Below, piece after piece: positions 1-5,088 of a stretch of 5,088 nucleotides of DNA. A program made the translations under genes and the position numbers. The DNA is taken from the IMG/VR virus record IMGVR_UViG_3300029706_000090, positions 1-5,088 of that record; one strand, 5' to 3'. The stretch comes from a virus. Each line of letters begins with the position of its first letter. Positions within the stretch are counted from its first letter, which is position 1. The notes under the pieces were generated by a model, which did no database searches, had not been told where the DNA came from, and was given only the letters and a program-made list of their open reading frames with translations.

Positions 1-93
1 CAGAGTTGCAAGAATAGAGGAAGTAGCGGTCTGAAGTCATCATCCTTTCATAAAAATATTTATGGCACATGTCACGGTCGAAGCATGAGAACC
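1..93. repeat. Terminal direct repeat, identical to 4996-5088. Most simply a circular replicon of about 4995 bp laid out with 93 bp of overlap. Less likely, att-type duplication flanking an integrated copy.
   Basis: Bases 1-93 (cagagttgcaagaatagagg...catgagaacc) recur exactly at 4996-5088. Genes and ORFs continue across the junction. Confidence 0.95.
43..70. other. dif-like candidate XerC/D-type recombination site (tcctttCATAA-aaatat-TTATGgcacat), repeated at 5038-5065
   Basis: The inner half-sites CATAA-N6-TTATG are the most conserved core of dif sites. It lies in a noncoding gap between two small ORFs. No tyrosine-recombinase or integrase gene is present in the element. The outer arms are divergent and the region is AT-rich, so it could be chance. 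Confidence 0.3.
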
Positions 94-185
94 AACATAG
101 AGAAAACAGCAGCGAATACAATGAAATAGCCAATCTCGGGGACAGTGAAGATACCGAAACAATACTGTAAAGGTAAAATAGTCAT
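72..185 (-). CDS. 37-aa hydrophobic small protein, a candidate minor coat protein (pVII/pIX-like by size). Sequence: MTILPLQYCFGIFTVPEIGYFIVFAAVFSMLVLMLRP.
   Basis: Not in the ORF track (too short). Its ATG overlaps the stop of the upstream 205-aa ORF (ATGA at 183-187), implying translational coupling. It is a single predicted transmembrane helix. The stop is TGA at 72-74. Confidence 0.4.
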   Translation of the reverse strand: MTILPLQYCFGIFTVPEIGYFIVFAAVFSMLVLMLRP

Positions 186-802
186 CAGCTCATGCGCCCC
201 CAAATCGCGTTTTTAATCCAAGTAACAGTAGTAATGAAGACAAGGACAACAAGCAGAGCAGAAACGCAAGCTTGCGGGTTGAGTACCTGAGAAGTGGTAG
301 TGGAATCTTCCTCATAAGGGAGCTGAATAAGTTGAGTCGCACTATTATAGGAATACCTTTCAGACGTATAGCCGGACTTGTGCACCGTCTCAGTGCGTTC
401 GATAAAAAACGTGTCTCCGAACCAATCCATAATAGAAGTGAAACTATTAGAGACGTTAGGGAGATTAGCATACAAAGCCGGAGTATCTGCGGCACGGTCA
501 TCATAAGCGGTCAAACTCCCCTCAAAAGGCAATTCTTCTTCCTGAGGAACATAATCTTCACGGAGGTCAGGAGATTCAGTGATATTTTGTGCAGGTTCAC
601 CAGAAGCAGAAGCTTCAGACGGAGAATCATCTCGTGCATCTTGCTGTGAATCAAGTTTAACAATAGCTTCGGCAGATGCCTTAAGATAATCATACTGCTG
701 CACGGTCATGTCACAAGTACTACCGTCTTTATACAGCACAGTGTAGACAGTAACGCCGTCAGTATCAACCCAAGTTTTGATAATAGCAGGGACTTCCATC
801 AT
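185..802 (-). CDS. 205-aa acidic protein with a C-terminal transmembrane helix (tail-anchored), in the position pVI occupies in Ff phages. Function unknown.
   Basis: Long ORF with an excellent SD (GGAGGTGATAA before ATG). Its start overlaps the stop of the 55-aa ORF (ATGA). It has a Glu/Asp/Ser-rich middle and a C-terminal hydrophobic stretch, ACVSALLVVLVFITTVTWIK. Confidence 0.7.
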   Translation of the reverse strand: MMEVPAIIKTWVDTDGVTVYTVLYKDGSTCDMTVQQYDYLKASAEAIVKLDSQQDARDDSPSEASASGEPAQNITESPDLREDYVPQEEELPFEGSLTAYDDRAADTPALYANLPNVSNSFTSIMDWFGDTFFIERTETVHKSGYTSERYSYNSATQLIQLPYEEDSTTTSQVLNPQACVSALLVVLVFITTVTWIKNAIWGRMS

Positions 803-966
803 TTATCACCTCCATCCCAAAGGCCACGGAGAACAAAACCAACAAGCGAAAGCAGAAGACAGACAAGAACGAAGTTGCCAAAGGTACCGAAGCCGAAAAA
901 AGAAAGATTAAGGACATTAGCGATAAACGATGTTACAACACCGAGGGTCGAAACGAAGTCTACCAT
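799..966 (-). CDS. 55-aa small hydrophobic membrane protein, a candidate virion minor coat or membrane protein. Sequence: MVDFVSTLGVVTSFIANVLNLSFFGFGTFGNFVLVCLLLSLVGFVLRGLWDGGDK.
   Basis: Not in the ORF track. AAAGGA lies 9 nt upstream of the ATG at 966. The start overlaps the stop of the 43-aa ORF (ATGGTAG), and its own stop overlaps the start of the 205-aa ORF (ATGA). It has two hydrophobic segments. Confidence 0.5.
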   Translation of the reverse strand: MVDFVSTLGVVTSFIANVLNLSFFGFGTFGNFVLVCLLLSLVGFVLRGLWDGGDK

Positions 967-1091
967 GGCAACCAATCCTTTACGAATTTATAGATACCGA
1001 GGGCAACGAGAAAAACGACAACGGCGATAACAAGAGCACCACCGGAACCGAGCAAGCCAAAGACCTGCTTGAAAAAGTCAATAAAAGTCAT
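960..1091 (-). CDS. 43-aa major-coat-protein candidate (pVIII-like, with no signal peptide, as in Pf3 coat protein). Sequence: MTFIDFFKQVFGLLGSGGALVIAVVVFLVALGIYKFVKDWLPW.
   Basis: Not in the ORF track. GAAAGG lies 9 nt upstream of the ATG at 1091. The ATG overlaps the TGA of the pIII-like gene (ATGA at 1088-1091). The protein has an amphipathic N-terminus, a hydrophobic core, and Lys residues near the C-terminus, which is the typical pVIII layout. Confidence 0.5.
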   Translation of the reverse strand: MTFIDFFKQVFGLLGSGGALVIAVVVFLVALGIYKFVKDWLPW

Positions 1092-2266
1092 CCGTCAACC
1101 GCCTTTCGTATCAACATACGGAGCACAACGGCACCAAAGACCATGAGCGAAATAATGAAAAGGAAGCCGCCAAGATTCTGAAACATGGCATTTAGTACCG
1201 AAATAGAAGTCGAAGCAACGTCAGTATCTACGGAAGAAGAAGAATTCCAAGAATTCAAGTTATCCTTTGTGTTTGTGAGAGTATCGGAATCAACATCAAA
1301 GTCCTTAACAAGCTGGTCTTGAAGCTTATCCATAGTAACTTGAGAAATCCAATCACCAACCTTGACATCAGCAGGAAGCAAAGCATCAGGAACCCAAAGA
1401 GTTAAAGCAAAAGAGATAGAAACATCAAATTGCGTATTATAGACATGCATACCAGAACTAGAAGGTTGCTTACAAAAAACTAAACCAACGTCAGAAGAGG
1501 GAATAGAAAAAGCAAGGGGGAAAGGACGATAAGAGGGAGTACTTAAATGCGACATGCTCAAATGCAAATAATTATCATTAGAGGGGGAAGCCCAAAAATC
1601 ATTATCACCGTTCCGAATACTAAAAGAAGTATGATTAGTAGAACTATCGGATTTATCCCCAAAAAAGAAAATATTAGTGGGAACATAAATAGGATTATAA
1701 TCAAATATTTCGTGATCGAAATAATCAGAAATAGAAGAAGAATCAGAAGAAGGCCAAGAAGTCAAAAAACCAAAAATAGAACGGTCGGAAAAGACATCTG
1801 AAATGTTTTGAAGATCACCTCTCCATTTAACAGGATAAACGCGGAGAGCGCCAATATTGTAAGAAGGGTCACCAACAGGAAAAGAGGGCAAATCAAAAAG
1901 ATAACCAAAATCACTAGTCGGAACATAAGGAACCGAATACATATAAGTATGCGTAGTACCAGAAGAAGAAGTATAAGAATAGGTCGAAGAATCAGTTGAA
2001 TAAGGGAGCCAAGAATTATAAGAACTACCAGGGTAAGAGGAATACTCCTTCATAGGAGAGCAAATCAACTCATAACCAGAATACCCAGATAAAGACTTGC
2101 GTTGCCAAACATACCAAGAGCCAGGACGAGAATGAAAATCATCATTAGAAGGAGACGCGGGCCAATTATTAGATGCAAAAGCAGGAACAGAAAGAGAAAA
2201 AGAAAGAACCAAAGCCGCGACAAGGGCGGCGAAGCGCTTAAAGAAGCACCAATGCTTTTTATTCAC
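1088..2266 (-). CDS. pIII-like adsorption or minor coat protein. It has an N-terminal signal peptide, a Ser/Tyr-rich ectodomain, and a C-terminal membrane anchor. The probable start is GTG at 2266, which follows AAAGGTGGT + 9 nt. The maximal ORF begins at GTG 2284 and gives 398 aa.
   Basis: The signal-peptide-like N-terminus is (M)NKKHWCFFKRFAALVAALVLSFSLSVPAFA|SNN. The C-terminal hydrophobic anchor GFLFIISLMVFGAVVLRMLIRK is followed by a short basic tail. It is the largest structural gene, with tiny coat ORFs downstream of it. Confidence 0.6.
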   Translation of the reverse strand: MNKKHWCFFKRFAALVAALVLSFSLSVPAFASNNWPASPSNDDFHSRPGSWYVWQRKSLSGYSGYELICSPMKEYSSYPGSSYNSWLPYSTDSSTYSYTSSSGTTHTYMYSVPYVPTSDFGYLFDLPSFPVGDPSYNIGALRVYPVKWRGDLQNISDVFSDRSIFGFLTSWPSSDSSSISDYFDHEIFDYNPIYVPTNIFFFGDKSDSSTNHTSFSIRNGDNDFWASPSNDNYLHLSMSHLSTPSYRPFPLAFSIPSSDVGLVFCKQPSSSGMHVYNTQFDVSISFALTLWVPDALLPADVKVGDWISQVTMDKLQDQLVKDFDVDSDTLTNTKDNLNSWNSSSSVDTDVASTSISVLNAMFQNLGGFLFIISLMVFGAVVLRMLIRKAVDG

Positions 2267-2313
2267 TTCGCCACCACCTTTCACGGCATCGAATAACGGA
2301 GGTCAATCCGTAC

Positions 2314-2387
2314 TGGTTGCGGGGTTAGGATTCGAACCTACAGCTTCACGTTCAGAGCGTGACGTGCTACCGTTGCACCACCCCGCC
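2314..2387 (-). tRNA. tRNA-Gln (anticodon CUG at 2355-2353), 74 nt, with an encoded 3' CCA
   Basis: Minus-strand sequence: GGCGGGGUGGUGCAACGGUAGCACGUCACGCUCUGAACGUGAAGCUGUAGGUUCGAAUCCUAACCCCGCAACCA. Cloverleaf features by eye: acceptor stem 2-7/66-71 (6 bp, G1·A72 mismatch), U8, A14, a 4-bp D-stem GUGC/GCAC with G18G19 in the D-loop, a 5-bp anticodon stem UCACG/CGUGA, loop CU-CUG-AA with U33 and A37, a 4-nt variable loop, and a GGUUCGAAUCC T-arm (G49·A65 mismatch). Confidence 0.7.
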
Positions 2388-2447
2388 ATGTGAGAGCGGC
2401 GAACCACTCTCCCATAGGAAATGAAATTTAGGTTTGAACAAAGAAAG

Positions 2448-2690
2448 TTAAACTTCCTCAATTCCGAGAAGAAACCCATTGCGGTCGAAGTCGAAATCGT
2501 ACATAGCGCCAACAACAACAAGCGCATACGGCATCATACGAGCGTCAACATTGATTCTATCAACCTGCACGCCATCGTTGTCATCATTTGCACGCATCGA
2601 ATATTCGACCATGAGAGTAGTAAAATCATAGTTTTTGCCCTGCTTAGATGTGCCAGCGCGACGGGACTTACCAACTACAGTAGCTTTCAT
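2448..2690 (-). CDS. ssDNA-binding protein, gpV-like (80 aa)
   Basis: It lies immediately downstream of Rep, as gV does in Ff. GAAAGGATGG lies 7 nt upstream of the ATG. The segment SRRAGTSKQGKNY resembles the M13 gV DNA-binding wing TRSGVSRQGKPY (pattern S-R-x-G-x-S-[RK]-Q-G-K-x-Y). The size matches gV (87 aa in Ff). Confidence 0.6.
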   Translation of the reverse strand: MKATVVGKSRRAGTSKQGKNYDFTTLMVEYSMRANDDNDGVQVDRINVDARMMPYALVVVGAMYDFDFDRNGFLLGIEEV

Positions 2691-2708
2691 TGAGAGACCA
2701 TCCTTTCA

Positions 2709-3845
2709 TCAGAATAAAGATATATCATCAAACCCGACTTCACTAAAGGGAGAGGGGTCATCAGCGACTTCACGAAATTCTTCAACGGCAACACGCGAGG
2801 ATTCCGAGAATTGCGCAACTTCCTCTGTCAGCGCCAGAGGGGAGAACGGAAGACGCTCATTATAAAACTGTTCCCACTTACAACAAGCGAGGATTAGAAG
2901 CTCAGGGCGATAAAGCATAATATCAATAAGCCTGTGACCGAAGACATTAGCAACATAGGTCATTTTTTCTTCCTCGGTATGGATAGCAACGGAGAACTTT
3001 TGAACAAGGTCATCACTAAGGGGATGCGATAAGTCCTTAGTGAACTTAATGTTACGGGCATCAATATCGGTCACAAACTGCATATCATCCCAGCCATCAG
3101 GGAGAAGAATTTCATTCCCATAGCGACACCAGAATTTACGGAGATAAGCGAAGAGCATGTCAGGGTCTTCATAGTAAAACCAGAAAAGAGGAGAGGGGTC
3201 ATAGACGGTACGAGACCCAGCACGAACACGAGAAATGAATTTAAGCTCCATTTCATAACGAATAATATAGGAATCATCAGGGCAATCCAGAAGTTCACCA
3301 GAAGACATACAGAACTTTTGTTCAGGGTCTTGCAGAGATTTATTATAGATACGACAGAAGACCGCAGAAGACGTTCTGCGACCGATATAAACGGTAGTAG
3401 AATCGCCATAGCCTAGATACATGAACTTGCGAACCTTACGGGCTTTTTCAGGGTAATTCATTTCATCGACAGATGCAGTAACAACACCGAGATAGAACTC
3501 GCGCCACCGTTCTTTTTTCATAACAACATCGAAACAAAAGTCAAGACGGGAAAAATGACCGTATACATGACCTTCCTGCATCAGTGACGCAAGTCGTGGT
3601 AAGGTGGAGCGGAAAAGCTCACAACCATGACCAGACACTTGCAAAGAATGCGGAGATTGTTTCGCACCGTTGTTCGGCTTATAGAAAAGCCCCGCAGGGG
3701 AATTAAAAGGGGAATTCTCACTTGCGTTAGAAGTCTGTGCAAAGTGCAAATCACCCTTAGCAAGAGCATCTTCGATTTTAGGAATAGAAATTGAGCCCTG
3801 TTCAAAAGCAAATGTAGCGTAGTCAAGTTTAACAACCGTTTTCAT
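2709..3845 (-). CDS. rep: Rolling-circle replication initiator of the Rep_trans family (pT181 RepC/RepD-like). The probable start is ATG 3845, which follows AAAGGTGG. The maximal ORF starts at 3887 and gives 392 aa.
   Basis: Motifs: SRLDFCFDV near the N-terminus of the domain; CRIYNK with the putative catalytic Tyr codon at 3345-3347; YIIRYEMELK (compare the R-V-E-I-E-L-K segment of staphylococcal RepC/D). The upstream ATG at 3887 has no SD and lies inside the predicted -10 hexamer of the promoter. Confidence 0.8.
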   Translation of the reverse strand: MKTVVKLDYATFAFEQGSISIPKIEDALAKGDLHFAQTSNASENSPFNSPAGLFYKPNNGAKQSPHSLQVSGHGCELFRSTLPRLASLMQEGHVYGHFSRLDFCFDVVMKKERWREFYLGVVTASVDEMNYPEKARKVRKFMYLGYGDSTTVYIGRRTSSAVFCRIYNKSLQDPEQKFCMSSGELLDCPDDSYIIRYEMELKFISRVRAGSRTVYDPSPLFWFYYEDPDMLFAYLRKFWCRYGNEILLPDGWDDMQFVTDIDARNIKFTKDLSHPLSDDLVQKFSVAIHTEEEKMTYVANVFGHRLIDIMLYRPELLILACCKWEQFYNERLPFSPLALTEEVAQFSESSRVAVEEFREVADDPSPFSEVGFDDISLF

Positions 3846-3877
3846 GTGAGAAAACCACCTTTCATTTCCATGGCTAA

Positions 3878-3906
3878 ATGTTACCATAGTATGGATAAGC
3901 TGTCAA
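3878..3906 (-). promoter_or_regulatory. Sigma70-like promoter reading into rep on the minus strand: -35 TTGACA (3906-3901), 17-bp spacer, -10 TAACAT (3883-3878)
   Basis: Perfect -35 hexamer, optimal 17-bp spacing, 4/6 match at -10. It lies about 35 nt upstream of the SD and ATG at 3845. It is the only obvious promoter on the coding strand, which is consistent with a single operon that ends at the terminator at 4089-4141. Confidence 0.5.
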
Positions 3907-3922
3907 GAGGAAATTTCAAAAA

Positions 3923-3949
3923 GGTGGGCGTATTACACGAACGCCCACC
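3923..3949. other. 9-bp perfect inverted repeat (GGTGGGCGT...ACGCCCACC) with a 9-nt loop. It is a candidate plus-strand origin, Rep nick-site hairpin or operator just upstream of the promoter.
   Basis: Perfect complementarity between 3923-3931 and 3941-3949, in the noncoding region between the terminator and the rep promoter. Confidence 0.4.
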
Positions 3950-4010
3950 GGCTCCCGCCATCACGGTAGACACTACACAACGGAAGCCCCTACCAAACTG
4001 TTTAGGAGGG

Positions 4011-4029
4011 GCAAGGGCTTTGCCCTTGC
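4011..4029. other. 8-bp GC-rich hairpin (GCAAGGGC-TTT-GCCCTTGC) in the intergenic region. It is a candidate for a minus-strand origin, packaging signal or ori structure.
   Basis: Perfect 8-bp stem with a 3-nt loop, embedded in a GC-rich noncoding segment (3950-4088) that is atypical of the rest of the genome. Confidence 0.35.
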
Positions 4030-4088
4030 GGGGACGAGGGACGCGGTGGAGACGCTATCGCGCGACTAAACGTCGGGAGTGCTCCGGT

Positions 4089-4141
4089 AAAAAAAAGAAC
4101 TCCCCTAACCCCCTACGGGGGCACGGGGAGAACTTTTTTTT
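4089..4141 (-). terminator. Strong bidirectional rho-independent terminator. It ends the minus-strand operon directly after the Zot-like gene.
   Basis: A8 (4089-4096), then a two-tier GC stem CTCCCC/GGGGAG (4100-4105/4125-4130) enclosing CCCCC-TAC-GGGGG (4109-4121), then T8 (4134-4141). On the minus strand the stop codon TAA (4142-4140) runs into the stem-loop, followed by UUCUUUUUUUU. Confidence 0.75.
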
Positions 4142-4763
4142 ACTTCGAGGGGGTCTTGCTGATAACCTGCTCTGTATCGTATTCTAAGGCACTCACCTGC
4201 TTCACGGACTTAGGGATAGTATACCACCTTGCCCTGCCAGCCTTGCGCACCGTGTTGACCAGCTCTTGGCCTCCCTCGGGGCGATGTTCCATGGCAATGC
4301 AGGAGCGATAAGGAGTAAGACGACAGAACCAGCCGATGCGGTTGCAAAGAAAAATACGGTCACAGAGGTCACGAATCTTTTTATCAAAGTCCATGGTCTG
4401 AGAAGATACAATAATCGTCAAATGATATTTGCGCTGCATTTTGAAAAACTCAACTGCTTCTCGGGGCATAGTCTTGAAGTCACGGTTAGAGTGGAGCACG
4501 CCTATCTCATCAATGAGAATGAGAGAATCAGGGAGAAAGGTCTGTTTCCAATATTCCGGCTCTAACTCATAACCGATACCCATATTAGAATAGATAAGCC
4601 CCTTATTAGAACGAAGCCACTTATCAGCAACACGAGACATATACAGAGATTTGCCAGAGCCTTTTGAACCAACAACAGCTTCCAATTTGTATGGATTTTT
4701 GCAATAATTATCGATATATACAAAAAGCCAGCAAATACAAAAGATGAGAATACCATAAAGCAT
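4140..4763 (-). CDS. Zot/pI-like P-loop NTPase, a filamentous-phage assembly ATPase. This short form has an N-terminal transmembrane helix and no C-terminal periplasmic domain. The probable start is ATG 4763, which follows AAAGGA + 9 nt. The maximal ORF starts at 4781 and gives 213 aa.
   Basis: Walker A GSKGSGKS is encoded at 4670-4647. Walker B LILIDEIG compares with Zot FLFIDECG. YHLTIIVSSQT compares with Zot HHGWDICLTTPN. The N-terminal hydrophobic segment is LYGILIFCICWLFVYI. It is the last gene before the terminator, as gI is late in Ff. Confidence 0.75.
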   Translation of the reverse strand: MLYGILIFCICWLFVYIDNYCKNPYKLEAVVGSKGSGKSLYMSRVADKWLRSNKGLIYSNMGIGYELEPEYWKQTFLPDSLILIDEIGVLHSNRDFKTMPREAVEFFKMQRKYHLTIIVSSQTMDFDKKIRDLCDRIFLCNRIGWFCRLTPYRSCIAMEHRPEGGQELVNTVRKAGRARWYTIPKSVKQVSALEYDTEQVISKTPSK

Positions 4764-4786
4764 AGCATATAATCCTTTCATAAGAC

Positions 4787-4829
4787 GAGAAAACGTCGCC
4801 GACCATAAAATGGTCGGCGGCGTTTTCTC
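4787..4829. other. 19-bp near-perfect hairpin (one G·U pair) with a 5-nt loop, between the 42-aa coat-like ORF and the Zot-like gene. It is a candidate packaging signal, minus-strand origin or attenuator.
   Basis: GAGAAAACGTCGCCGACCA (4787-4805), loop TAAAA, then TGGTCGGCGGCGTTTTCTC (4811-4829). It ends 5 nt before the ATG at 4781. No U-tract follows in either orientation. Confidence 0.5.
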
Positions 4830-4836
4830 TCAGCGT

Positions 4837-4965
4837 TTAACTGCGACCGGGAATCCAGCGGCGGAGAACACGAAGCACAATGCCCGCGATAGCGATAATC
4901 ACGAAGACAAGCAGAATCGGCTGCGATTCATAGAAATCAATAAGCTGACCCATCCAAGTGATCAT
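4837..4965 (-). CDS. 42-aa pVIII-like coat protein candidate. Sequence: MITWMGQLIDFYESQPILLVFVIIAIAGIVLRVLRRWIPGRS.
   Basis: Not in the ORF track. It has the canonical major-coat layout: an acidic amphipathic N-terminus (D10, E13), a hydrophobic core, and a basic C-terminus (four Arg). It is followed by the 19-bp hairpin, which is reminiscent of the structure after gVIII in Ff. There is no clear SD, so the start is uncertain. Confidence 0.4.
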   Translation of the reverse strand: MITWMGQLIDFYESQPILLVFVIIAIAGIVLRVLRRWIPGRS

Positions 4966-4995
4966 CGAAGTGAAGAATTCACCGACCAAGGAAAG

Positions 4996-5088
4996 CAGAG
5001 TTGCAAGAATAGAGGAAGTAGCGGTCTGAAGTCATCATCCTTTCATAAAAATATTTATGGCACATGTCACGGTCGAAGCATGAGAACC
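4996..5088. repeat. Second copy of the 93-bp terminal repeat (equals 1-93)
   Basis: Exact identity with 1-93, offset 4995. Confidence 0.95.

Follow-up and report, generated by a model that had tools for sequence, protein, structure and literature searches.

What is a Zot-like ATPase of about 210 amino acids (aa), with its only hydrophobic helix ahead of the P-loop domain, doing in a phage genome that encodes no secretin? The question is raised by a stretch of 5,088 nucleotides (nt), positions 1 to 5,088 of the IMG/VR virus record IMGVR_UViG_3300029706_000090 (in the following called the window). There, an open reading frame (ORF) on the minus strand at 4140..4781 had been described from the letters of the sequence as a minimal Zot/pI-like assembly ATPase adapted to a monoderm envelope; we refer to this description as the original prediction. 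The gene very probably encodes a morphogenesis ATPase of the pI/Zot family, which belongs to a filamentous single-stranded DNA (ssDNA) phage of gut Clostridia with a genome of 4,995 nt. Its architecture is atypical and comprises an N-terminal transmembrane helix, an N-P-Y linker and the P-loop domain only. The genomic context is that of an inovirus, with an initiator protein (Rep) of rolling-circle replication (RCR), several small proteins with a single transmembrane segment and a small circular genome.

Family assignment of the P-loop domain

The two nucleotide-binding motifs of the original prediction, Walker A GSKGSGKS and Walker B LILIDEIG, were both found by translation. Searches with sequence, profile and predicted structure all point to Zot, as had been proposed. 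The Pfam family Zot (PF05707) matched with 22.9 bits at a cut-off of 20.3, whereas AAA, AAA_30, RNA_helicase and other ATPase families all stayed below their Pfam cut-offs; PF05707 is also the precomputed assignment of 70 out of 86 homologs. Among the PHROG profiles, phrog_197 (“Zot-like”) was matched with an E value of 5.9e-9 and phrog_1675 (M13 protein I) with 1.6e-3. A profile built from 38 homologs, named A1, had its top match in the PDB with 2r2a, the N-terminal domain of Zot of N. meningitidis (E 3.8e-4), and aligned via hhalign with the canonical pI of Vibrio phage fs1 (NC_004306), which served as canonical-pI control (E 5e-6). The structural comparison that had been suggested gave the same result: an AlphaFold (AF2) model built on A1, with a predicted local distance difference test (pLDDT) value of 82.9, found 2r2a as top PDB match with Foldseek (E 3.4e-8) at a moderate TM-score of 0.52-0.56. 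In BFVD, a 96%-identical deposited protein and models named “Zonular occludens toxin [Inoviridae sp.]” were leading. AAA, RNA helicase, NACHT, KaiC/RecA and STIV B204 were considered as family and rejected, each being weaker than Zot.

The second-best Foldseek match, the packaging NTPase B204 of STIV2 (E 7e-6), leads to the alternative that the protein is an ATPase of another FtsK/HerA-type family, e.g., a packaging NTPase of a membrane virus or plasmid like STIV B204, and that the element does not extrude a filamentous phage. The 37.2-kDa protein of plasmavirus L2 and A32-like packaging ATPases match the model as well, and the phage is known here from its genome alone, with no virion observed. 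However, Zot ranks first in Pfam as well as in the sequence and fold comparisons with the PDB, so that no non-phage ATPase family, which the original prediction had named as a possible refutation, fits better. Moreover, the element is a 5-kb circle with the gene set of an inovirus (RCR Rep and several proteins of 40-60 aa with a single transmembrane segment) and without a capsid protein of another type, and related inoviruses of Lachnospiraceae form filamentous particles (PMC10061712). We therefore regard a packaging-type ATPase as quite improbable and the Zot assignment as the appropriate one.

Reading frame, start codon and end of the protein

The ORF 4140..4781 counts 213 aa from its first ATG. 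The true start is probably M7 (ATG 4761-4763), which gives a protein of 207 aa, because the first ATG overlaps the Shine-Dalgarno (SD)-like sequence GAAAGGA (4773-4779) located 9 nt ahead of M7. The equivalent methionine is the start in nearly all full-length homologs, in the PHROG profile and in the GenBank coding sequence of MT135293, and the alignment with phrog_25712 begins at residue 7 of the 213-aa ORF. The first ATG (4781) was therefore dropped as start: the predicted frame and the extent of about 210 aa hold, whereas the start more likely lies at 4763.

The protein ends after 207 aa (213 aa if counted from the first ATG), and the 252 nt between its stop codon and rep have stops in all three frames and no hydrophobic stretch in any of them. 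Since this region is structured and directly followed by rep, there is no hidden C-terminal domain. As ssDNA it folds with -55.6 kcal/mol (z -6.19). Inverted repeat I1 (4087-4143), flanked by A8/T8 runs, forms a hairpin with arms of 27 nt that abuts the pI stop codon, further GC-rich hairpins lie within the region, and a promoter scan gave a promoter-like TTGACA-17-TAACAT at 3906-3878, after which the rep gene follows. Probably, the region comprises a terminator, which may be bidirectional, as well as the origin and the packaging signal.

Canonical pI proteins have 350-430 aa; that of Vibrio phage fs1, for example, has 384 aa with the transmembrane helix at 212-236. It could thus be argued that the short protein is an artefact, i.e., that a frameshift, a sequencing error or a recent truncation masks a canonical pI of greater length, including a C-terminal transmembrane helix and a periplasmic domain. 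The downstream stops, the lack of a hydrophobic stretch and the mere 252 nt left before rep speak against this. Furthermore, the 86 homologs, which come from independent assemblies and lie nearly all on contigs of 4-5.5 kb, mostly have 200-260 aa with the same end, the GenBank relatives have 207 aa, and the versions in prophages 205-295 aa. This conservation across independent assemblies excludes a frameshift artefact, the second refutation that the original prediction had considered, and the probability of any such artefact is practically nil. The absence of a C-terminal domain is a property of the protein.

Architecture and topology

As predicted, the protein has one hydrophobic helix only, and this lies ahead of the P-loop domain. 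The sole hydrophobic segment comprises residues 1-29 (Kyte-Doolittle 19-residue mean >1.0, maximum 2.26 at residues 3-21), the AF2 model shows residues 2-21 as a helix (block-mean pLDDT 90-94), and no hydrophobic segment was found past residue 29, i.e., C-terminal to the ATPase domain. The designation of this arrangement as “permuted” is appropriate insofar as the helix is N-terminal rather than located after the ATPase; it is descriptive only, as there is no sign of descent from the C-terminal helix of canonical proteins. In A1, the residues K38, D85, E86, R94, R111, K112, S121, and D125 are invariant. With an invariant Walker A lysine, Walker B Asp-Glu pair and downstream Arg, Lys, Ser and Asp residues, the protein can be expected from its sequence to be an active ATPase.

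The architecture is widespread. In homologs with a complete N-terminus, the first about 20 residues are variable in sequence with conserved hydrophobicity. Basic residues come next, then a (C/T)-x-N-P-Y motif that is near-invariant, with Walker A located at about residue 32-35. Within A1, the tyrosine of N-P-Y is invariant and the asparagine and proline are conserved to at least 90%. An exhaustive profile search yielded 2,841 cluster representatives at E<=1e-3, of which 829 also reached E<=1e-10, and the N-terminal hydrophobic segment is present in 127 of the 131 top full-length representatives (50%-identity clusters); a few relatives carry a second hydrophobic segment close to the C-terminus. 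About 40 homologs from genomes (prophages of Lachnospiraceae and Oscillospiraceae) have the same layout of N-terminal helix and NPY, with 205-295 aa. The (C/T)-x-N-P-Y motif is near-invariant in relatives from 96% down to about 30% identity, including the prophages of Clostridia, and no description of it was found in the publications consulted. Its conservation suggests, speculatively, a role of the linker beyond tethering.

In the 127 representatives, the 12 residues that follow the helix carry an average net charge of +2.3, compared with about 0 ahead of it. According to the positive-inside rule, this bias would place the N-terminus outside and the ATPase domain in the cytoplasm. A different reading of the N-terminal segment is that of a cleavable signal peptide, which would make the protein a secreted Zot-type toxin: relatives are annotated as “ZOT protein” or “Zonula occludens toxin,” and a study on Enterocloster phages raises possible Zot toxicity (PMC10061712). 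However, no basic n-region precedes the hydrophobic core, as the positive charges come after it, and a P-loop ATPase requires cytoplasmic ATP. The enterotoxic fragment of V. cholerae Zot, which acts on tight junctions, maps to the C-terminal extracytoplasmic part after the transmembrane helix. The region equivalent to this fragment is absent here, with no sequence following the ATPase domain. A toxin is thus extremely improbable compared with a membrane-anchored assembly ATPase, and the labels “protein H” and “zonula occludens toxin” on gut-virome records are misleading, given that the C-terminal part that bears the toxin is missing.

Absence of a secretin and hosts of the phage group

Bases 1-93 of the window are identical to bases 4996-5088. 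Due to this exact 93-nt terminal direct repeat, an assembly overlap, the window represents a complete circular genome of 4,995 nt. All plausible genes, eight ORFs in the ORF list of the window, are located on the minus strand. The Pfam scan of these eight ORFs gave no secretin, as had been predicted, and besides Zot no family above threshold. The surroundings of pI were also inspected in three prophages located on large scaffolds; the large ORFs there include a Rep but no secretin.

A host scan with one genome per species revealed 45 loci, almost all in Lachnospiraceae, Oscillospiraceae and other Clostridia. Integration into contigs of 100-800 kb is seen for several loci, some of which come from isolates such as Oscillibacter ruminantium GH1 and Lachnospiraceae bacterium AM93-12TA. 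The closest prophage, L001 (CAVDWO010000002.1, L001:1-9804; 83% aa identity), is titled Alistipes onderdonkii. Taken literally, this title would mean a diderm host of the Bacteroidota, in which the phage might use a host secretin as CTXphi does. However, the DNA flanking L001 has a GC content of 62% and contains the gene for RadA as well as a spore-coat operon (CotJA/CotJB/CotJC), from which it follows that the contig is mis-binned and comes from an endospore-forming member of the Bacillota; Alistipes was therefore dismissed as host. Moreover, 42 of the 44 other loci carry labels of Clostridia or other Bacillota, the remaining two being one unclassified bacterium and one weak match in Treponema. 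A diderm host is accordingly highly improbable. For the phage group, the data support monoderm Clostridia as hosts, and the host of this exact phage can be assumed to be of the same kind. At the junction of the L001 prophage, no tRNA and no att repeat was identified. About 1.1 kb of L001 between pI and radA (1822-2970) match neither the window nor any Pfam family.

A very common group of fecal phages is thereby placed on spore-forming Clostridia. The 94%-identical protein P0001 represents a 90%-identity cluster of 3,081 sequences assembled from public sequencing runs, and this size marks the phage group as very common among sequenced samples.

Relation to known pI proteins

Canonical pI/Zot proteins (Ff pI, CTXphi Zot, Vibrio fs1 pI, 2r2a) share with the protein of the window the homologous P-loop domain with Walker A and B, the downstream basic residues and the presumed role as assembly motor. 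However, their ATPase begins at residue 1 and is followed by a transmembrane helix at about 210-270 and then by a periplasmic domain working with the secretin pIV, whereas here the helix precedes the ATPase and both the C-terminal part and the secretin are missing. Of the features of the canonical architecture (iPF_00003), neither the C-terminal transmembrane domain with extracytoplasmic extension nor the partner secretin is found.

The architecture instead corresponds to the “atypical” pI described for 13 protein clusters (iPF_00013, 1,740 proteins) in the Supplementary Notes of Roux et al. (2019, Nat Microbiol, PMC6813254). According to these authors, typical versus atypical pI tracks the envelope, i.e., diderm versus gram-positive or wall-less, and inoviruses that infect gram-positive hosts, wall-less hosts or some archaea usually carry the atypical pI (Roux et al., 2019). 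Judged by the described features, both have a Zot-like domain without C-terminal extension, an N-terminal transmembrane domain, a monoderm host and no secretin, and there is no difference of substance. The original prediction of a minimal pI adapted to a monoderm envelope is therefore supported by the architecture, the absence of a secretin and the Clostridia hosts. As the N-anchored short pI and its link to monoderm hosts have been published since 2019, the concept is not novel.

The closest deposited relatives are the porcine gut “Inovirus sp.” genomes MT135292, MT135293, MT135296, and MT135305, with 95-96% aa identity across 207 aa. These records (coding sequence “protein H,” e.g., QRV61693.1, UniProt A0A894JLK4) share gene order and the 207-aa length of the coding sequence with the window, whereas their nucleotide identity of 82-88% extends over just 20-49% of it. 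In line with this, phrog_25712 is matched with an E value of 6e-149 and the BFVD model of a deposited relative with a TM-score of 0.89. The nearest of the inoviruses from lemur and rodent feces, Dulem virus 75 and bajarodino viruses 79 and 60, show 55-59% identity, most other Dulem and bajarodino relatives 29-38%. These have circular genomes of 4-8.5 kb and the same short protein under the name “ZOT protein,” a toxin name that is inherited from the Pfam family. In the four porcine records (“UNVERIFIED Inovirus sp.”), the pI-like gene is called “protein H” and others “protein A,” “protein C,” or “protein F.” These are microvirus-style labels that are unfit for an inovirus and carry no functional meaning.

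Inoviruses of Enterocloster and Hungatella likewise have Lachnospiraceae hosts, and those of Enterocloster are secreted in vitro and in vivo (Microbiome 2023, PMC10061712). Relatives of the pI protein with 36-41% identity occur in both genera (L022, L009), whereas the genomes are larger (6.5-8.5 kb) and belong to another clade; the publication is silent on pI topology. A preprint on Dehalococcoides IME1 contains no statement on pI topology either.

Propionibacterium phage B5 (Paulinoviridae), which the original prediction had proposed for comparison, turned out to be a looser relative than assumed. Its Orf8, named by Roux et al. (2019) as a member of iPF_00013, also has a Zot-like domain without C-terminal transmembrane extension, lies directly before rep and comes from a phage of a gram-positive host. 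However, it has 308 aa, its similarity is remote (hhalign E 6.8e-6 over 63 columns), and a hydropathy scan of Orf8 (L047:3274-4200) gave no N- or C-terminal hydrophobic segment and no in-frame upstream extension. The N-terminal anchor is thus not common to B5, which was rejected as direct analog. Orf8 may depend on a separate membrane partner, e.g., Orf7 directly upstream. As a further observation, the BFVD match P42538, an uncharacterized 37.2-kDa protein of the enveloped, budding plasmavirus Acholeplasma phage L2 (E 1.2e-7, TMq 0.62), hints, as far as predicted models go, that a membrane virus which is not filamentous and infects a wall-less host may also encode a Zot-like ATPase.

Possible mechanism of secretin-independent extrusion

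Starting from the family membership, the architecture and its conservation, the absence of a secretin and the Clostridia hosts of the family, all of which the analysis establishes, we infer how the protein may work with regard to topology, ATPase activity, oligomeric state and role in extrusion. The helix would anchor an oligomeric ATPase on the inner side of the cytoplasmic membrane, leaving only a very short N-terminus outside. ATP hydrolysis would then drive the substitution of coat proteins embedded in the membrane for the ssDNA-binding protein while the genome is extruded. As there is no outer membrane, the secretin would be dispensable, and likewise the secretin-engaging periplasmic pI domain of the Ff phages.

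Several points weigh against reading the protein as the assembly motor of a filamentous phage of Clostridia. The Zot score in Pfam barely exceeds the threshold, and the match spans only residues 78-151. The protein and its close relatives are known from sequences and predicted models alone, and the proposed N-out/C-in topology was deduced from hydropathy and the positive-inside rule only. The host of the exact phage is taken from one contig of a metagenome bin, which ends within the prophage and is labelled Alistipes, so that an assembly chimera is possible. Furthermore, six anchor helices, assuming a hexamer, would form no obvious channel for the filament; with too few obvious channel helices, the passage of the virion through membrane and peptidoglycan is not explained by the genome. 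On how virions cross the peptidoglycan, the sequence contributes nothing new. With 5 kb and 207 aa, the phage is nevertheless among the smallest candidate systems to study the exit of filamentous virions from a monoderm cell.

One could imagine that the N-terminal helix and the (C/T)-x-N-P-Y linker form a docking site for the coat proteins or for the C-terminally anchored 205-aa protein (185-802). This would be a two-part machine, in which a partner in trans replaces the C-terminal domain of pI and pXI. We consider this idea unlikely; if true, the phage would offer a tractable minimal model for secretin-independent extrusion across a single membrane and peptidoglycan.

Further genes and features of the genome

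The features of the window are compiled in Table 1. The protein encoded directly upstream of pI has an acidic N-terminus, a hydrophobic core and the tail RVLRRWIPGRS. By analogy with the features of inovirus coat proteins (PMC6813254), it is a candidate for the major coat protein and thus for the substrate of the assembly ATPase. Between the two genes, a terminator scan gave a match at 4819-4797. For Rep, the Pfam match to Rep_trans (25.2 bits) is below the cut-off of 29.6. The 80-aa protein is a candidate ssDNA-binding protein, as its placement after Rep resembles that in other inoviruses. The 398-aa protein, for which neither a Pfam nor a secretin match was found, is a candidate adsorption or minor coat protein with a pIII-like layout, and the proteins of 43, 58, and 205 aa are candidate minor virion or assembly proteins.

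Table 1. Coordinates of genes, motifs and regulatory features in the window
Feature	Position	Strand	Basis or remark
Candidate major coat protein, 42-50 aa, single transmembrane segment, basic C-terminus	4837..4989	-	ORF and sequence
Terminator-like hairpin between coat-like gene and pI	4787..4829	-	Inverted repeat I2, 20-nt arms, 95% complementary
In-frame upstream ATG extension, 6 codons	4764..4781	-	Probably untranslated; holds SD-like GAAAGGA 4773-4779
pI/Zot-like morphogenesis ATPase gene	4140..4763	-	Most likely frame, 207 aa plus TAA at 4140-4142
N-terminal hydrophobic helix LYGILIFCICWLFVYIDNYC, predicted membrane anchor	4701..4760	-	Hydropathy, AF2 helix, conserved hydrophobicity
Juxtamembrane N-P-Y motif	4689..4697	-	Between anchor helix and strand 1
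Walker A GSKGSGKS	4647..4670	-	Confirmed by translation; G, K, G, S, G, K invariant in A1
Walker B LILIDEIG	4500..4523	-	Confirmed by translation; D85, E86 invariant in A1
Structured intergenic region pI-Rep, 252 nt	3888..4139	-	Stops in all three frames
RCR initiator (Rep)	2709..3887	-	phrog_27843 “replication initiation,” E 1e-248; likely start M15 at 3845
80-aa protein, candidate ssDNA-binding protein	2448..2690	-	Weak phrog_929 (RstB) match, E 6e-4
398-aa protein, N-terminal signal-like and C-terminal hydrophobic segment	1088..2284	-	phrog_24417, no assigned function
43-aa protein with hydrophobic segment	960-1091	-	Matches PHROG specific to phage group, no assigned function
58-aa protein with hydrophobic segment	799-975	-	Matches PHROG specific to phage group, no assigned function
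205-aa acidic protein	185-802	-	C-terminal hydrophobic segment, short basic tail, without signal peptide; phrog_27347, phage-group-specific
GAAAGG(A/T/C) motif copies	4773-4779, 3853-3860, 2699-2716, about 1100	-	Repeat family D2

The motif GAAAGG(A/T/C) recurs 8-12 nt 5' of the likely starts of pI (M7), rep (M15) and the genes of the 80-aa and 43-aa proteins. It is a Firmicutes-type SD sequence, and its recurrence indicates that several first-ATG or -GTG starts in the program-made ORF list are too long. Finally, a small ORF on the minus strand at 72-185 encodes a hydrophobic protein of 37 aa (MTILPLQYCFGIFTVPEIGYFIVFAAVFSMLVLMLRP). As its ATG overlaps the stop codon of the 205-aa gene (TGATG), it may represent an additional small virion protein that is translationally coupled.

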